Origin: Pseudomonadota bacterium
Lineage (GTDB): Bacteria; Desulfobacterota; Desulfobacteria; Desulfobacterales; JBDRRP01
DNA: 64,000 nucleotides
NCBI GenBank assembly: GCA_043825735.1
Contig: JBDRRP010000129.1
Coordinates: 1 to 64,000, forward strand
Direction of reading: 5' to 3'
The position numbers are program-made. The stretch's first letter is position 1, and every line of letters begins with the position of its first letter. Of this stretch, positions 18,001-24,000 are shown one piece after another.

Positions 18001-21000
18001 TGAGGTGACCGTCATGGCCGACAGCCCCCTGCTGGAGCAGGCCGCCGTCAACCTTCTGGACAATGCCATCAAATACAGCGCCGCCGGAGAGACCATCCGC
18101 ATCACCACCCGCATGCTGGACGGCGAAATCCAGGTCTCCGTCGCAGACAATGGCCCGGGCATCCCCAAAAAACACCTGCCGCGCCTCTTCGAGCGTTTCT
18201 ACCGCGTTGACAAAGCCCGCAGCCGTCAGGTGGGCGGCACCGGATTGGGGCTGGCCATCGTCAAACACATCGCCCAGGCCCACGGCGGACACGTCACCGT
18301 GGAAAGCGAAGTGAACAAGGGCAGCACCTTCACCCTCCACCTGCCGCGGCCGGTAACAGAGCCCTCCGCTGGATAGCGATTTCGATTTCGATGTTCACAC
18401 GGTGTTGCTGTCCAAACAGAACGTATTTATGACAACCCGCTCTAAAAACACGGCTATCCAGATTTTAATCTGCTGATTTGCAGAAAACGCAACTGTGGCA
18501 ACAAGCCCCTCCGCGCATTTTTGATAGCCCCGTAAAGTCAGAATCTCTCGCAAAGCCGCAGAGATCGCAAAATGATGAAGAAATAACCTTCCTCTAATCC
18601 TCCCCAAATACAACCGACCGATTATACTGCGAATACAAAGACCTATGCGCATCTCTCGGCCGATGTCACACCGGGAGTCTGTTCAATACGGGACCCTACC
18701 GAAAGGATGCCAAAACATGCCCGCCAGTCACGCCACCCGTGCAACCTTGCGGCTGGTAACGCCCTCTGAAAGCCCTCACGGCCTCCAGCGTCTTCGCTCA
18801 CTGCTGGAAATCCCGGAAACCCCATCGGCAATGATCGCGGCCCTGCCGTTTGTCTCCGAAGACGCCACGGCGGGGATGGAAAATGAATGGCAGGCCGCCG
18901 TACAGGGAGCATCTGATGCCGTGGATCTTCCCTTGAGCATCAAAAACGCCAGTTATTATGGCAACCTCGTAAAAAAGGCAGCCGCCGGGGATACGGCACG
19001 ATCCAAAGTCACTGAATTGGAGTCATTTCTCACGAGCAACACCGACGGCATCTGGGAGAACAGTTGGGTCCGACTGCCGCTGTCTTCGCTCACCGCCGGG
19101 GCCATGGAAGTCTTTGAAAAGGATTTAATGGCCGACAAGCGCGACCCCGGGGCCGGTCGCCGCACCGACGCAGACCGCTTTTACTGCCGGCTGAATGGCG
19201 AGGCGGCCCTGCGCATCCCCATCAGCTATCTGCTCAAACTCGCACTGGCCGATGTCGTCACCACCGCCGGGGTCCCGCCCCTGATCGCCGATACCGGCCT
19301 GGGATTGCTGGAGCATTTTCTCAGTGACAACACCTCCCCTGAGGTGACGTCTTTTGCGCCGGTGGTACTCAGCACTGAAAGCGGCATGGGCACGGCACTG
19401 GTGCATGAGGCCTCCCGGCGCACCGTGCTCAGTCAGCTCCTGCTGCAGTACGCCAACCGGAAATTCGGCCTGAACGCCAGCGGCCAGCATGCCATCCTGT
19501 ATGCCTCCCCCCAGCCGCCGCTACGCCAGAAACGCCTCAACGATCTGGTATCGGACGCGTTCTACCGGGAACTGTTCATGAGCCCCTGTCTGTCGGGCTG
19601 GGACTGCGGTGAAACCAAGCACCGGTATATGGCGCTCTGCCACCAGGTACTTTCCCGCAGCCAGCTCAATGCCGTGGGCAAACTCAAGGAGGCCGGCATC
19701 ATCACCAACAATCTGGTGGTGCTGCCCAACACGTCGAGCACATGCCTTTCAAACAACGGGGTCCACATCTCCCTGGGCAGCCGCAAGCTGGGTCGTCTGC
19801 TGGCCGGTGGCAGCGGCTTCGGACCTCAAGAGGAAAAATACCTGGGTGATCTGACCCTCAAAATCATGGAACATTTCCTGCCGCTCATGGTGGGCACCTA
19901 CAGCGCCGCCCCGTATCGGCTCGATTTTGAAGATTTCCATCCCGAAAAAGCGCTGGGATTTTTACCCCACGAGCTGGAATTCACCCATCTGAGGATGCTC
20001 TGGCGCCGATGGAAGAAAAAGGCGGACCTGAACTGTTTCGGCCGCCCCCTGACGCCGTTCGGCCCGCTGTGGCTCGACCAGATCATCGCCCGGGGGTTTC
20101 GACTCAGAGGAGATCTGGTCACCGATTTTCGCATCATCGACTACCTGGTTGCCGTGCTGGGCACCGAAGAGAACCCTTCCATGGACGGCACGCTGGGCAA
20201 CGACCGCCGGCTCAAGCAGGATCTGGCCGCCAGCGGGGTCTTCGACCCGGCCATGCCGCTGTACCTGCCGGTGCGCAACCGCCCCTTTGCCGATTATGGC
20301 TACTCCGGTTTCGAGGCCCGCTATTACAGCCAGTTTTTCGAACCGGGGGCCGATCTGCGTCACGCTGTGAATCTCCAGGCGCTGGTTGCCGCGCTGGCCT
20401 ATCGGTACGCCCTGAGCGGCGCGTGCACCCATCTCACCATCCCCGATTCGCCGTTTATCGAAAGCGAACGCCGGCAGGTCCTGTTCGGCGCGGCCATCGG
20501 CATTCCAACGTTTTACGTACGAAAAGACACCCGCAACCATTTTATCCGGCGGGTTGTCGAAAAAACCTCAGGCACCCGCCAGAGCCGGCGCTACGCCGGC
20601 TATATCCGTGTGCTTCAGTCCGAGTACAAGCGGGCGCTGCTCGACGTGCTGCGCACCGACGGTGCCGATCTCATCGAAGCCATGGGGCTGGACGGCACCA
20701 TCAGTGATCTCTCCCGCCGCCTTTCATCCGAAGGTGACTGGGCCTCCAGCCGGCTGGTGGACGGCATCCTGGAGACCGCCGGCGCCAAAAACGCCATGGC
20801 CATGCCGGCGGCTGTATTTAACGCTGCCGCGGAAACCTATTATCGACAGGACTTGAAACGACGCCACCTGGCGCAAGCGCTGAAAGACGTGTGCGCCGAC
20901 GCCGACGCCCTGGATGACTGGCAGACCTGGCGTGAAGGCTATTTCAACCAAAGCCTGCTGGAACTGCTCGACGGGCGCAGCGCCCGGCAAACCGTGGAAA

Positions 21001-24000
21001 TGCACCAGGCGGCCATCCTCGACGAAACCGTTCCGCCCGCACACTTGACCACCCTCATACAACTCATCCTGCTTTGCATTCACAAGGATGCGCGCGACAG
21101 CCTGGAGCGCGGCAAATCATGAATCTTCACCCCCATCAATTCATCGACCGCGGCAGCGGCCGGGTCGTGACCGAGCGGCTGGTGGCCGACCGGATCATCG
21201 CCGCCCTGTACACCGGCGTCCGCGAAAAAAACCCGTGGCTGTTCAATGCGCTCACCTCGTCCCGGGGATCCCGGCTGCTGGGGTATCTCAACTACGACAT
21301 CCAACTGCCCGGCGGCCGCCGACGCATCACGCGCCTGATGCAGCGAATGGGCATCAGTGCACACGAGTGCCTCGACGATCCCGCCGGCTTCAAAACCGCC
21401 CGCGAGCTGTTCGAGCGCCGCATCCCCTACTGGCACTGCCGTCCCATGCCGACGGATACCGGCGCGGTGGTTTCCCCGGCGGATGCAAAGATGCTGGCGG
21501 GCAACCTCAAGGAGCACCCGCAGATCCGGATCAAGGAAAAGTTCTTCTGCCTGGAGGAGCTGCTGGGCCGTGACAAACAGCAATGGCTTGCGGCGTTCGC
21601 CGACGGCCCCTTCGCCATCTTCAGACTCACGCCCGACAAATACCACCACAATCACGTTCCCGTCGATGGCCGGGTAGCCGACATTTATGACATTGCCGGT
21701 CGGTACCACTCCTGCAATCCCGGCGCGGCGGTCCAGTTGGCATCCCCGCTGTCCAAAAACCGCCGGGTGGTGACCGTCCTCGACACCGACGTCGCCGGCG
21801 GCACCGGTGTGGGTTTTGTGGCCATGATCGAGATCGTCGCACTGATGATCGGGGACGTGGTGCAGTGCTACAGCGCCAGCAGGTATGACGCGCCCGAGCC
21901 GGTGCGTGCCGGGATGGTGCTGAAAAAAGGCCAGCCCAAAAGCCTTTTCAGGCCCGGCAGCTCATCGCTCGTGCTGATCTTCGAAAAGGACCGGATCCGG
22001 TTCGACGCGGACATCATCGAAAACCTGCGCCGCGGCCACGCCGCCAGCCGCTACGCCCTGGCCTTTTCCCACCCTCTGGTGGAAACCGACGTCGCCGTGC
22101 GAACGCGCATCGCCGTGAGGAGAAAACCGTCATGAGCAACCTGCTGTTTATCGCCACCGCAGCCACCCTCATCGGCGCGATGCTGGCCTGGAGTTTTCGC
22201 CACCTGACCCGCGAGCGCTGGCAGTTCGTCGGTGCAATTCCGACGCGAAAATGCGCCGACGGCGCCTTTGACGGCGTCAACCTCACCTACTATGGCCTGC
22301 TCAACGCCAACGCATACGTCCTGGCGACCGCCGTCGCCGTGATCGCGTTGGGAGCCATGGGCATTCCGCTGGCCGTGAGCGCGGCCATCCTGGCGGCCAT
22401 GCTCGGGTGCTGCATGCCCGCCGCCAGAATCATCGCCCGCATCGTCGAAAAAAAACGCTTCACCTTCAGTGTCGGCGGGGCCGCTTTCGTCGGCATTCTC
22501 ATCGTCCCATGGATCGCCTTGGCTGCCGGACGGATGTCGAAAGCCGAGGTCGATCCACTGGGCGTAATGGCGGCGGTCGCCATTGCCTACGCCTTCGGCG
22601 AGGGGGCCGGTCGCCTTGCCTGCATCAGTTTCGGTTGCTGCTACGGCCGCCCGGTGGCGTCCCTTCCCGGGCCCCTCAAGGGGATATTCAGGCGCTTTCA
22701 CTTCGTCTTCCGGGGGGAGACCAAAAAATGCGCCTACGCCAGCCGTCTGGACGGCACGCCCGTAGTGCCGGTACAGGCGATCACCGCGGTACTGTACTGC
22801 GCCGCCGGCGTTATCTCTCTCGCGCTCCTGCTCAACGGATATCCCCGGACGGCGATGATCCTCTCACTGGTGATCACCCAACTGTGGCGGTTTTTCTCGG
22901 AGTTTCTCAGAAGCGACTACCGCGGTGACCGCAAAATTTCCGCCTACCAGATCATGGGTCTGGCGGGGATCGCCTACGGGCTGGCCGTTGCCGCTCTGAT
23001 GCCGCCGCAGACCATGCCCCGGCCGGACATCACCGCCGGCCTCGCCCAGCTCTGGGCGCCCGGCCCCATCCTCATGCTCCAGCTCCTCTGGATCGGGGCA
23101 TTTCTCTACACCGGCCGCAGCCAGGTCACCGGCGCCAGCATCCGCTTTTTCGTTCATCAGGACCGGATCTGACCCTTGGTTGACATCCCGGGGGCTTCAT
23201 AATATCTGTGGCGTCAACTTTACGATCAGGAGGTGACACCATGCCCATATTCGAATTTCGATGCCTCTCGTGCCAGGAGCTTTTTGAAATCCTGCAGATG
23301 GGGTCCTCAGATAGCGTTGAAACCAAATGCCCCAAGTGCGGCGCCGAAACCTTTGAGCGCGTGATGAGCAGCACCAATTTCGCCATGGGTGCCGGCGGCG
23401 GCGGCAAGCCGGCGGTGGCCGCCCAATCGCGCCAGTGCGGGGGCGGCTCCTGCCATTCCTGGAACCTGCCGGGGCACAGTAAATAAGCGTTTCGCCGTTC
23501 GTTTTTCTCTGCGCCTCAGCGCCTCTGCGCGAGAAATCTCTTTGGTTTTCTTTGTGTTCTTAGCGCCTTGGCGAGAGTCAATAGCTTGCGAATACCTGAA
23601 AACAGAAACAGGGGCGATCTGCAGCAAATCGCCCCTGCCTTATATTTCATCTGCGCAATCATCACCGACAGCCCGGCCGATCAGCTCCCTTCACCGGCGG
23701 CGGTCATCTCCTGGCGGGTCAGCCATCCGCCGCCGAGCGCCTTGTACAGCTTGACATAACCAGTGAAATACTGCTGGCGAAGCTCGGAAAGTTCCAACTC
23801 CACCGAAAAGAGCGTCCGGTCGGCATCCTGCACTTCAAGATAGCTCGTAACCCCCTTGTCATAGCGCTCGGCTGAGAGCGTACCGGCGTTTTTGGCGGCG
23901 GCCAGTTTCCGTTCCACGGCGGCGATCTGCACCCGCAGCGTCTGTACTTCCACGAGCGCGTCCTCGACTTCCCGGAATGCGTTCAACACCGTCTGCTCAT

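Follow-up and report, generated by a model that had tools for sequence, protein, structure and literature searches.

A three-gene operon likely to direct the synthesis of a sulfur-containing aminolipid in phosphate starvation

Results

Three overlapping forward-strand genes, here called BIG (18717-21122, +), PSDL (21119-22135, +) and LGTL (22132-23172, +), span 18717-23172 of the window, the 64,000-nucleotide stretch of DNA that was analysed, and lie directly 3' of a PhoB/PhoR-like gene pair. They likely constitute an operon for a sulfur-containing aminolipid used in phosphate starvation. BIG encodes a soluble protein of 801 residues from an unnamed family, with a predicted glutamate-cysteine ligase (GCL) fold; PSDL is a paralogue of the pyruvoyl decarboxylases of the phosphatidylserine decarboxylase (PSD) family, and LGTL is a divergent membrane transferase of the Lgt family with a predicted inverted topology. 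Both the BIG/PSDL and the PSDL/LGTL junctions are ATGA overlaps, so that the genes are translationally coupled. The leader of the trio (18377..18716, +) carries a copy of a repeat (18519 to about 18590) found 67 times in the genome, and also a conserved block and a ribosome-binding site before the ATG. Alignment with locus L007 reveals conserved blocks, with AAGGA..ACATGCCC at the BIG start. The ribosome-binding site and ATG at 18717 are kept in the closest relative, and a longer start at 18645 is not. An 81-residue FmdB-type zinc-ribbon protein (23241-23486, +; Zn_ribbon_8 and TIGR02605) is encoded 3' of the trio. Among 80 loci it recurs only in L007, and it is probably a neighbour and not a member of the module. 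The trio itself is as described in the genome-wide survey's note.

The three genes are strictly co-inherited. Among 201 genomes drawn evenly from the phylum, BIG is present in 20, PSDL in 20 and LGTL in 21; these amount to 21 carriers, 19 of them with all three genes, and the loci of the two incomplete carriers lie at contig ends. None of the three genes is present in the 180 non-carriers. Counted over good-quality genomes of the phylum, BIG occurs in 19 of 180, compared with the 10 of 121 recorded before. Gene order was assessed in those 65 of the best 80 loci that have at least 2.6 kb of downstream sequence: PSDL adjoins BIG in 61 and both partners are present in 58 (17 of 18 in the evenly drawn set). 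At three loci (L020, L034 and L037) neither partner of BIG lies within 8 kb. Carriers of the trio include records from Acidobacteriota, NC10 and SAR324.

BIG matches no Pfam or NCBIfam family at E<=0.1 and has no hydrophobic 19-mer above 1.6, bearing out the earlier description of a protein with neither a named domain nor a membrane helix. The same 2,923 relatives were recovered, the best 119 listed being 52-71% identical, named hypothetical and devoid of Pfam domains; BIG is present as a single copy per genome. Mean column identity in an alignment of 30 sequences is 59% (previously 60% in 25), with E55, E57, E114, H350, E385, H386 and R401 again invariant. In the structural model (pLDDT 79.1, pTM 0.86, reproducing the earlier values), invariant residues lie on strands as G53-x-E55-x-E57, E114, H350, R401 and E533-x-R535. 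VIA-align against 48,161 chains returned the set of folds reported before with somewhat higher Z scores: GshF at 17.6, GshA at 16.7 and 16.2, a YbdK-type ligase at 16.4, PafA at 15.2, Dop at 14.3, plant GCL at 12.0 and yeast GCL at 9.0, followed by glutamine synthetases at 8.6-6.2 and unrelated rows at 5.7 or below. Foldseek, which had earlier given a probability of only 0.35-0.41 for GshA and GshF, now yielded seven GCL rows (probability 0.80-1.00, E 0.012-0.14) and no other matches. By both methods the model of BIG is nearest to γ-glutamylcysteine ligases.

The likeness to E. coli GshA (1v4g), the N-terminal domain of GshF (3ln7) and the YbdK-type ligase (1tt4) covers 336-412 residues (Z 16.2-17.6). 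Compared by eye, the short G-x-E-x-E and E-x-R motifs that are invariant on strands of BIG are likewise invariant in a GCS2 alignment. BIG differs from the GCLs in its length of 801 residues, its long insertions, a C-terminal helical domain and a sequence identity of only 11-14%, and profile searches (Pfam, NCBIfam, PDB-profile and hhalign) gave no link to any ligase family. A search of the organism's own genome found no PF04107 or PF04262 gene. We propose that BIG may be a ligase forming the amide of γ-glutamyl- or 4-aminobutanoyl-cysteine.

PSDL matches PF02666 above the Pfam cut-off (E 3e-38, 131.9 bits) but stays well short of all NCBIfam PSD equivalog cut-offs (134 versus 371 bits). The catalytic and cleavage motifs of pyruvoyl enzymes are kept, with PAD, YHxNHxP and PGSS invariant; the equivalent PAD, YHxxHxP and G-S-S/T self-cleavage motifs are found in E. 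coli Psd (7cnw/6l06; PF02666). This enzyme is the nearest solved structure (E 3e-15), ahead of PsiD-type enzymes (E 8e-6). The genome holds two further strong PSD-family genes, among them an ordinary psd, consistent with the survey. Unlike Psd, PSDL is an extra copy that is present only with BIG and LGTL, and the substrate proposed for it is a γ-glutamyl head group or glutamate instead of phosphatidylserine. We propose that PSDL is an α-decarboxylase that converts the glutamyl moiety to 4-aminobutanoyl.

LGTL matches PF01790 (E 3e-12, 46.8 bits), and an ordinary lgt (248 bits) is present elsewhere in the genome, as the survey had it. Its model (pLDDT 90.2) has nine long helices, where seven had been given, and E. 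coli Lgt (5azb), the phosphatidylglycerol:prolipoprotein diacylglyceryl transferase, is the sole significant Foldseek match. With the residue roles taken from PMC4728403, LGTL shares the Lgt fold and keeps G142, R143, G150, G154, R239, E243, R246 and Y26-G27. Other residues stand in place of H103, N146, N149 and E151, in three cases invariant cysteines; H103 and E151 are essential in E. coli Lgt (PMC4728403), and diacylglyceryl transfer by LGTL is therefore not assured.

Relative to Lgt, LGTL carries an additional helix at each terminus. Its catalytic face has a mean of 18.1 lysines and arginines (range 15-21) versus 2.9 (0-9) on the other face across 26 family members, whereas the ordinary Lgt of this genome has 6 on the catalytic face versus 11 on the other, and the periplasmic side of E. 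coli Lgt is negative. Given the extra N-terminal helix and the reversed charge bias, the active site of LGTL probably faces the cytoplasm, inside-out with respect to Lgt. LGTL is proposed to move diradylglyceryl from a phospholipid to a cysteine thiol; the acceptor atom would be the same as in Lgt, and the acceptor would be a small dipeptide-like molecule instead of a protein.

The regulatory pair upstream comprises an OmpR-type response regulator (15885..16580, +; Response_reg and Trans_reg_C) and a sensor kinase with HAMP-PAS-HisKA-HATPase domains (16577..18376, +). The best NCBIfam match of the regulator is PhoB (TIGR02154; 243.6 bits, below the cut-off of 296.2), and the best matches of the kinase, PnpS (394.6 bits; cut-off 400) and PhoR (TIGR02966; 325.4 bits; cut-off 334.2), are both just short of their curated cut-offs. 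In L007, L010 and L086 the trio is preceded by an orthologue of the regulator (71-85% identity). No other response regulator of the genome exceeds 45% identity to it. At 26 of the 80 best loci and 5 of 20 evenly drawn loci the trio has a Pst, PhoU, PhoH or PHO4 gene no more than about 8 kb away, against a background of 432 in 20,000 random windows of the organism's own genome (2.2%). OlsF-like, GT4, lipase and hydrolase genes also recur nearby. A Pho-box test was weak (15/74 versus 21/181, p 0.057), and the motif is absent 5' of five PstS-like genes and of the GT4 gene of G007. The trio is probably controlled by the adjacent PhoB/PhoR-like system. The survey had missed this link to phosphate starvation, both in the pair upstream and in the Pst, PhoU and PhoH genes at other loci.

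A lipid that fits the trio has been described. According to Ding 2024 (PMC11181052), phosphate limitation of Desulfatibacillum alkenivorans PF2803, a related sulfate reducer, leads to almost complete replacement of PE, PG and CL by GlcA and BACys lipids, the latter, 'N-butyramide cysteine glycerol' lipids, being made only at low phosphate. They give a head-group ion C7H13O3N2S+ (m/z 205.064), and the supplementary table lists BACys-DAG(31:0) as C41H79O7N2S+ (743.5587). γ-Glu-Cys minus CO2 is C7H14N2O3S by our computation, and its S-diacylglyceryl derivative has [M+H]+ 743.5603 and a formula equal to that of BACys-DAG(31:0). Hence γ-Glu-Cys ligation, α-decarboxylation and S-diradylglyceryl transfer yield the exact elemental formula of BACys, and the predicted product and the BACys lipids are equal in the formulae of head-group ion and intact lipid. 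The cores that carry BACys are of the DAG, acyl/ether and diether kinds, as for PE and PG (PMC11181052), the pattern expected if the head groups of phospholipids already present were exchanged.

PF2803 is DSM 16219, whose record (L073) contains BIG, PSDL and LGTL, all intact. With BACys known from a single strain and the trio from about 10% of genomes of the phylum, finding the trio in that strain is weak evidence alone. The lipids are low-phosphate products, and the trio lies among phosphate-regulon genes. The BACys structure is a tentative one from MS2, worded as 'a butyramide linked to a cysteine' (PMC11181052), and the reported connectivity may be an isomer of the enzyme-predicted 4-aminobutanoyl-cysteine. 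The formula is compatible with an ester link as well as a thioether. We found no paper naming biosynthesis genes for BACys, and the accessible text of PMC11181052 names none; the assignment of the trio to these lipids is our own proposal. What is new is thus the genes, the lipids having been described chemically.

Discussion

We put at roughly 60% the probability that the trio encodes the biosynthesis of a glycerolipid with sulfur and nitrogen but no phosphorus, most likely of the BACys class, made when phosphate is scarce. All steps are proposed from family chemistry, and their order is provisional. BIG would use ATP to join the γ-carboxylate of glutamate to the amine of cysteine, as in glutamate-cysteine ligases. 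PSDL, a self-processing pyruvoyl enzyme, would strip the α-carboxyl from the glutamyl residue, which presents a free α-amino acid end like that of phosphatidylserine, to leave a 4-aminobutanoyl amide. In the alternative order PSDL would turn free glutamate into 4-aminobutyrate for BIG to join to cysteine. LGTL would then transfer the diradylglyceryl of a phospholipid such as PG to the cysteine thiol at its predicted cytoplasmic face, and the phosphorylated head group would be freed inside the cell, where its phosphorus could be reused. The net result would be a head-group exchange from phospholipid to zwitterionic thioether aminolipid. The survey's scheme of ligase, decarboxylase and lipid transferase building an amide-linked glutamyl-type head group stands in its lipid core, backed by co-inheritance, the GCL fold and the residues of PSDL and LGTL, and its lipoprotein alternative is weak; the product, then taken to be an unknown lipid, is probably BACys, chemically described in 2024 (PMC11181052).

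The strongest rival, which we regard as unlikely, keeps a phosphate-linked lipid head-group pathway and changes its product, for example to a γ-glutamylated or 4-aminobutanoylated derivative of phosphatidylethanolamine or phosphatidylserine, or to a different diacylglyceryl-amino-acid lipid. The family chemistries and Pho neighbourhood permit other amine or thiol acceptors, the fold of BIG does not reveal the acceptor, and the PG-selecting E151 is lost in LGTL. However, a phospholipid product would save no phosphorus, no such lipid is listed among the low-phosphate lipids of PF2803, the only carrier examined for them, where searches of the supplementary table gave no other N,S formulae (PMC11181052), and the BACys formula fits with no extra assumption.

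Less probable still is a soluble product, whether a γ-glutamyl compound, a thiol or something resembling a peptide, with LGTL in another membrane role such as export or anchoring. PsiD-type amino-acid decarboxylases do belong to the PSD family, GCL-fold enzymes form soluble γ-Glu-Cys, and this genome lacks another GCL-family gene; yet PSDL is much nearer to the lipid-acting E. coli Psd than to the PsiD type, LGTL retains those residues with which Lgt binds and activates the diacylglyceryl ester, and LGTL is always accompanied by BIG and PSDL in the 201 genomes, barring the two contig-end exceptions to a full trio.

Modification of a protein or lipoprotein, in which a PafA-like ligase tags and an Lgt-like enzyme lipidates, was earlier held as possible as a lipid head group and now seems very improbable: the fold matches of BIG do include PafA and Dop, and the natural acceptor of Lgt is a protein cysteine, but GCL rows outrank both and are the only Foldseek matches, gene clustering of the 80 loci gave no conserved small substrate or Pup-like gene, an active face towards the cytoplasm, as predicted for LGTL, is unsuited to secreted lipoproteins, an ordinary lgt is retained, and we know of no role for PSD-type enzymes on proteins.

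The BACys-type pathway proposed for the trio follows the logic of established systems of lipid remodelling in phosphate starvation, namely PlcP/Agt glycolipids, the BtaAB betaine lipid and the OlsBA/OlsF ornithine lipid, in which phospholipids give way to phosphorus-free lipids under Pho control. To our knowledge, none of these has a GCL-fold ligase, a PSD-type decarboxylase, an Lgt-type transferase or a thioether-linked head group. In some genomes OlsF-like and GT4 genes adjoin the trio itself.

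BIG, PSDL and LGTL form one unit

We refer to the three genes as BIG (18717–21122, + strand; 801 aa), PSDL, a paralogue of the phosphatidylserine decarboxylase (PSD) family (21119–22135, +; 338 aa; PF02666, E 3e-38), and LGTL, a divergent membrane protein of the Lgt family (22132–23172, +; 346 aa; PF01790, E 3e-12). BIG and PSDL, and likewise PSDL and LGTL, overlap by an ATGA, and these two overlaps point to translational coupling of the trio. The start of BIG at 18717 is favoured by its closest relative (locus L007), where the ribosome-binding site and first codons are conserved and a longer upstream extension is not. 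An FmdB-type zinc-ribbon gene (23241–23486, +; 81 aa) lies downstream of LGTL. The ordinary lgt gene of this genome and its other PSD-family genes are located away from the trio. The operon described in the genome-wide survey's note is thus confirmed.

BIG, PSDL and LGTL also occur together. In an even sample of 201 genomes of the phylum, 20 contain BIG, 20 a PSDL-type gene and 21 an LGTL-type gene, 21 genomes in all; the other 180 have none of the three. All three genes share a contig in 19 of the 21 carriers; the two exceptions are a contig that stops 143 bases past PSDL (genome G156) and a BIG gene truncated by a contig start (G218). We also compared the best 80 loci from species genomes; in 65 of them the sequence continues for 2.6 kb or more past the end of BIG. 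PSDL adjoins BIG in 61 of these 65, and 58 have both PSDL and LGTL. Departures from the common order are few: both partners lie about 5.5 kb from BIG in L035, LGTL is upstream in L044, and L042 and L046 are without a full LGTL. In L020, L034 and L037 neither partner occurs within 8 kb of BIG, which is flanked there by genes for an alpha/beta hydrolase, an EAL protein, a regulator/kinase pair and Pst components. In an evenly drawn set of loci both partners are in place in 17 of 18, the exception (L107) having PSDL 2.6 kb downstream. The record titles of trio loci span Desulfobacterota orders, Acidobacteriota, NC10 and SAR324, and gene clustering revealed no additional gene conserved across all loci.

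BIG is predicted to be a new family with a glutamate-cysteine ligase fold

BIG has no match at E≤0.1 in Pfam or NCBIfam, the glutamate-cysteine ligase (GCL) models PF04107, PF04262 and PF03074 included, and a search for a hydrophobic segment found none. Its relatives number 2,923 proteins, unnamed and without a Pfam domain among the matches listed; clustering at 50% leaves 883 representatives, many of which are fragments, and at least 571 species genomes carry BIG. Pfam likewise assigns no domain to ten family members that diverge further, one of which is 42% identical. Mean column identity in an alignment of 30 sequences is 59%.

The structural model of BIG (pLDDT 79.1, pTM 0.86) adopts the fold of the GCL/carboxylate-amine ligase superfamily, which includes GshA, GshF, YbdK and PafA/Dop. 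When the model was compared with 48,161 chains by VIA-align, GshF (Z 17.6), GshA (16.7 and 16.2) and a YbdK-type ligase (16.4) led the ranking, followed by PafA (15.2), Dop (14.3), plant and yeast GCLs and glutamine synthetases. The eight best rows all belong to the superfamily (Z 17.6–9.0 over 336–413 residues), and unrelated chains score at most 5.7. Foldseek agrees, its best seven rows all being GCLs (E 0.012–0.14, probability 0.80–1.00). Sequence methods are blind to this relationship: a profile search of the PDB returned only chance NifB rows (E 1.5), hhalign gave BIG a probability of 0.5 against one protein of the known ligase family GCS2 and 0.1 against a 24-sequence GCS2 alignment, and a search of the ESM Atlas recovered solely unnamed clusters of the BIG family itself. 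Given the structural ranking and this blindness, BIG is, on its modelled fold, a new family of the superfamily, with the cysteine ligases rather than the Pup enzymes as its nearer kin. The survey had already reported the 2,923 relatives, the invariant residues, the superfamily matches and the model confidence, all of which we reproduced.

In the GCL superfamily, acidic, histidine and arginine residues that bind metal and nucleotide are located on the central sheet. The invariant residues of BIG, G53-x-E55-x-E57, E114, H350, R401 and E533-x-R535, fall on strands of the model and may be their counterparts. G-x-E-x-E and E-x-R are also invariant in GCS2 proteins, as compared with BIG by eye, and these two strands are the sole sequence-level hints of kinship between BIG and the GCLs. 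The chemistry of BIG is predicted from this modelled fold.

Catalytic motifs are kept in PSDL and in part in LGTL

PSDL keeps the motifs of self-processing pyruvoyl PSDs (PAD, YHxNHxP and PGSS) and scores 131.9 bits on PF02666 (Pfam cut-off 22). P279-G280-S281-S282, D122, H176 and H179 are invariant in 27 sequences, and the region of D122, H176 and H179 aligns with PADG and YHRVHMP of Escherichia coli Psd. E. coli Psd is also its best alignment (E 3e-15); amino-acid decarboxylases of the PsiD type rank below it. PSDL does not qualify as an orthologue of true PSDs, its best NCBIfam equivalog reaching 134.3 bits where the cut-off is 371, and another PSD-family gene of the same genome outscores it on the Pfam model.

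LGTL passes the Pfam threshold for Lgt (46.8 bits; cut-off 24.9) and falls far below that of the NCBIfam Lgt equivalog (24 bits; cut-off 334). A profile search of the PDB by sequence did not find Lgt; the fold search did, with E. coli Lgt (5azb) the sole match at E≤0.001 (E 9e-5, TM 0.43/0.51) to a model of pLDDT 90.2. We placed the residues of LGTL against the Lgt of the same genome and the published Lgt motif, aligning the C-terminal motif by eye because MAFFT misplaced it; the motif and residue roles are those described in sections of PMC4728403. R161, R253, E257, R260 and Y54-G55 of LGTL, which correspond to R143, R239, E243, R246 and Y26-G27 of the Lgt catalytic centre, are invariant in 26 sequences, and the Lgt residues G142, G150 and G154 are present as well.

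Other elements have been exchanged. The Lgt signature is G142RLGNFINGELWG154; its E151, and likewise H103 in the HGGL motif, are essential in E. coli (PMC4728403). LGTL, by contrast, lacks some of these residues: it reads GRLACISFGCCYG at the signature, with N146, N149 and E151 replaced and three invariant cysteines, and has no histidine at the position of H103. This pattern of retained and replaced residues indicates that LGTL has kept the predicted site for binding and activating the diacylglyceryl ester and has not kept the elements that select phosphatidylglycerol (PG) or those of arm 2.

The orientation of LGTL in the membrane also appears to differ. LGTL has an additional N-terminal helix, and lysine plus arginine average 18.1 on the face that carries the catalytic residues versus 2.9 on the opposite face (26 sequences), whereas the canonical Lgt of the same genome has 6 and 11, respectively. 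The periplasmic side of E. coli Lgt has been described as negative. By the positive-inside rule, this charge bias predicts that the active site of LGTL should face the cytoplasm, unlike the periplasmic active face of Lgt. The cytoplasm is also the predicted working place of the soluble, ATP-using BIG and of PSDL. A complex prediction for LGTL with PSDL scored 0.00, which bears neither way on binding.

Phosphate-related genes are enriched around the trio

Pst transporter genes, PhoU, PhoH, a PHO4 transporter and PhoB/PhoR-like pairs recur beside the trio, as do an OlsF-like ornithine-lipid synthase, an 814-aa GT4 glycosyltransferase, lipases, hydrolases and a DUF2062 protein. At fixed thresholds, a Pst, PhoU, PhoH or PHO4 gene is present in the flanks of 26 of the 80 best loci and 5 of the 20 evenly drawn loci, compared with 432 of 20,000 random 18.3-kb windows of the JBDRRP01 genome. 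This is a strong enrichment, although p-values exaggerate it because the loci are related. The arrangements nonetheless vary, with Pho genes before or after the trio or encoded on the other strand; in Smithella-type loci pstSCAB-phoU follows the trio without a break. Nine Syntrophales-type loci (L047, L052, L055, L059, L063, L074, L076, L081 and L108) carry a gene for a DksA/TraR-type zinc-finger protein of about 137 aa between PSDL and LGTL, after which the operon continues as pstS-pstC-pstA-pstB-phoU. In the window, an OmpR-type regulator and a PAS-HisKA kinase are encoded directly upstream of BIG. Their best NCBIfam matches are PhoB for the regulator and PnpS and PhoR for the kinase, all three scoring slightly under the curated cut-offs.

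The case for a Pho box upstream of the trio is not convincing. The upstream regions share no common word among 7-mer direct repeats at an 11-bp period. A TTAACC-N5-TTAACC motif, chosen partly after the data had been seen, is enriched upstream of BIG relative to shuffles and weakly so relative to other intergenic regions of the same loci (score ≥10 in 15/74 versus 21/181, p 0.057; score ≥11 in 5/74 versus 3/181). In genome G007 it occurs upstream of BIG and is absent upstream of five PstS-like genes and the GT4 gene. An element common to the regions upstream of the phoB-like gene (15606–15680) and of BIG (18519–18590) was rejected as a regulatory site, being a dispersed intergenic repeat with 67 copies in the genome; it starts TTTGATGGC.CCGTAAAAAGTC and continues with CACAGAG/GCAGAGA or CTCGCAAAGCCGCAGAGATCGCAAAG tails.

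A proposed route to sulfur aminolipids

Replacement of phospholipids by phosphorus-free lipids is a major microbial response to phosphate scarcity. Sections of Ding et al. 2024 (PMC11181052) report that Desulfatibacillum alkenivorans PF2803 at low phosphate replaces phosphatidylethanolamine, PG and cardiolipin nearly wholly by glucuronosyl lipids and 'butyramide cysteine' (BACys) sulfur aminolipids with diacyl, acyl/ether and diether cores. They give the BACys head-group ion as C7H13O3N2S+ (m/z 205.064), and table sd01 gives BACys-DAG(31:0) as C41H79O7N2S+ at 743.5587. Part of a further source (PMC4703814) equates PF2803 with DSM 16219, whose genome (L073) has intact open reading frames for the trio (827, 344 and 358 aa).

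The predicted activities would lead to such a lipid. BIG, acting as a GCL, would yield gamma-Glu-Cys, as the chemistry of its family gives. PSDL would then strip the alpha-carboxyl from a head group with a free alpha-amino acid end, leaving 4-aminobutanoyl-cysteine; alternatively, PSDL might make 4-aminobutyrate from glutamate ahead of ligation. LGTL, in the manner of Lgt, would place a diradylglyceryl group on the thiol with release of glycerol phosphate. gamma-Glu-Cys minus CO2 is C7H14N2O3S, and its S-diacylglyceryl(31:0) form has the same formula as BACys-DAG(31:0), with a calculated value of 743.5603. The elemental formulae of the predicted product agree with those of the head-group ion and of BACys-DAG(31:0), a formula being the same for isomers and for different linkages. 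The head group described by Ding et al. as 'butyramide linked to cysteine' may be an isomer of 4-aminobutanoyl-cysteine, and an ester link has the same formula.

We propose by analogy that the trio comprises the BACys biosynthesis genes, with a probability of roughly 0.6. The sections of PMC11181052 covered here propose no genes for BACys, and the part of its supplementary table searched for intermediates (other N,S formulae, 'Glu' or 'unknown') contains none. Open-licence PMC and bioRxiv texts yielded no paper on the trio and none on BACys beyond Ding et al. 2024. The survey's reading of the operon as a ligase, decarboxylase and lipid transferase building an amide-linked glutamyl-type head group was largely right; it missed the link to phosphate and the lipid already described.

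A wider reading, to which we give somewhat less than even odds, joins these predictions into a previously undescribed kind of membrane remodelling. The flipped Lgt paralogue would exchange head groups directly at the cytoplasmic face: the thiol of a gamma-glutamyl-derived cysteine dipeptide would receive the diradylglyceryl core of phospholipids, also where that core is an ether, and glycerol phosphate would be freed within the cell for reuse. The head group, 4-aminobutanoyl-cysteine, would be made by the new GCL-fold ligase and a PSD-type enzyme acting on a glutamyl instead of a seryl group. The pathway would extend well past the sulfate reducers, to Acidobacteriota, NC10 and SAR324, and thioether aminolipids would then be a widespread sign of phosphorus stress in anoxic habitats that has so far been overlooked.

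The gene sets known for anaerobes, for glycolipids, ornithine lipids and betaine lipids, leave the sulfur aminolipids of 2024 unexplained, and the trio offers a concrete, testable gene set. If confirmed, it would serve as a gene marker with which to follow the 'sulfur-for-phosphorus' remodelling of lipids in sediments, aquifers and soils. It would also bring a new enzyme family of the GCL fold, a PSD-type enzyme whose substrate is not phosphatidylserine and the first Lgt relative with a small-molecule acceptor and a cytoplasmic site of action, and it would suggest a revised structure for the BACys head group.

Other phosphate- and lipid-related genes

Several further families of the window are found close to the trio in other genomes: a radical SAM protein (37043–38335, −), a PstS-like binding protein (38705–39775, +), a hybrid histidine kinase (39766–42681, +), an EAL-CBS-GGDEF protein (45860–47707, +), PhoU (47846–48499, +) and a class-3 lipase (48596–49657, +). 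Because these families adjoin the trio elsewhere, their arrangement here suggests a dispersed phosphate-response region.

Among them lies a gene for an 818-aa protein (43125–45578, −) with a C-terminal GT4 glycosyltransferase domain and about 440 N-terminal residues without a family. It is a candidate glucuronosyl-lipid synthase of the same phosphate response, and G007 encodes a relative with 48% identity. Gene clustering places relatives no more than 8 kb from the trio in 17 of 80 loci, and tblastn does so in 12 of 80 (for example, L009, L010, L017, L018 and L028).

A DUF2062 membrane protein of about 160 aa is encoded directly 3′ of LGTL in L009, L010, L011, L017, L028, L012, L032, L060 and L082; in the window no DUF2062 gene follows the trio, and a homologue is located on contig C27. 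On contig C107 of the same genome (121783–133154), a pstSCAB operon lies about 6 kb from a gene for an OlsF-like bifunctional ornithine-lipid synthase, so the organism may have at least two routes to phosphorus-free lipids.
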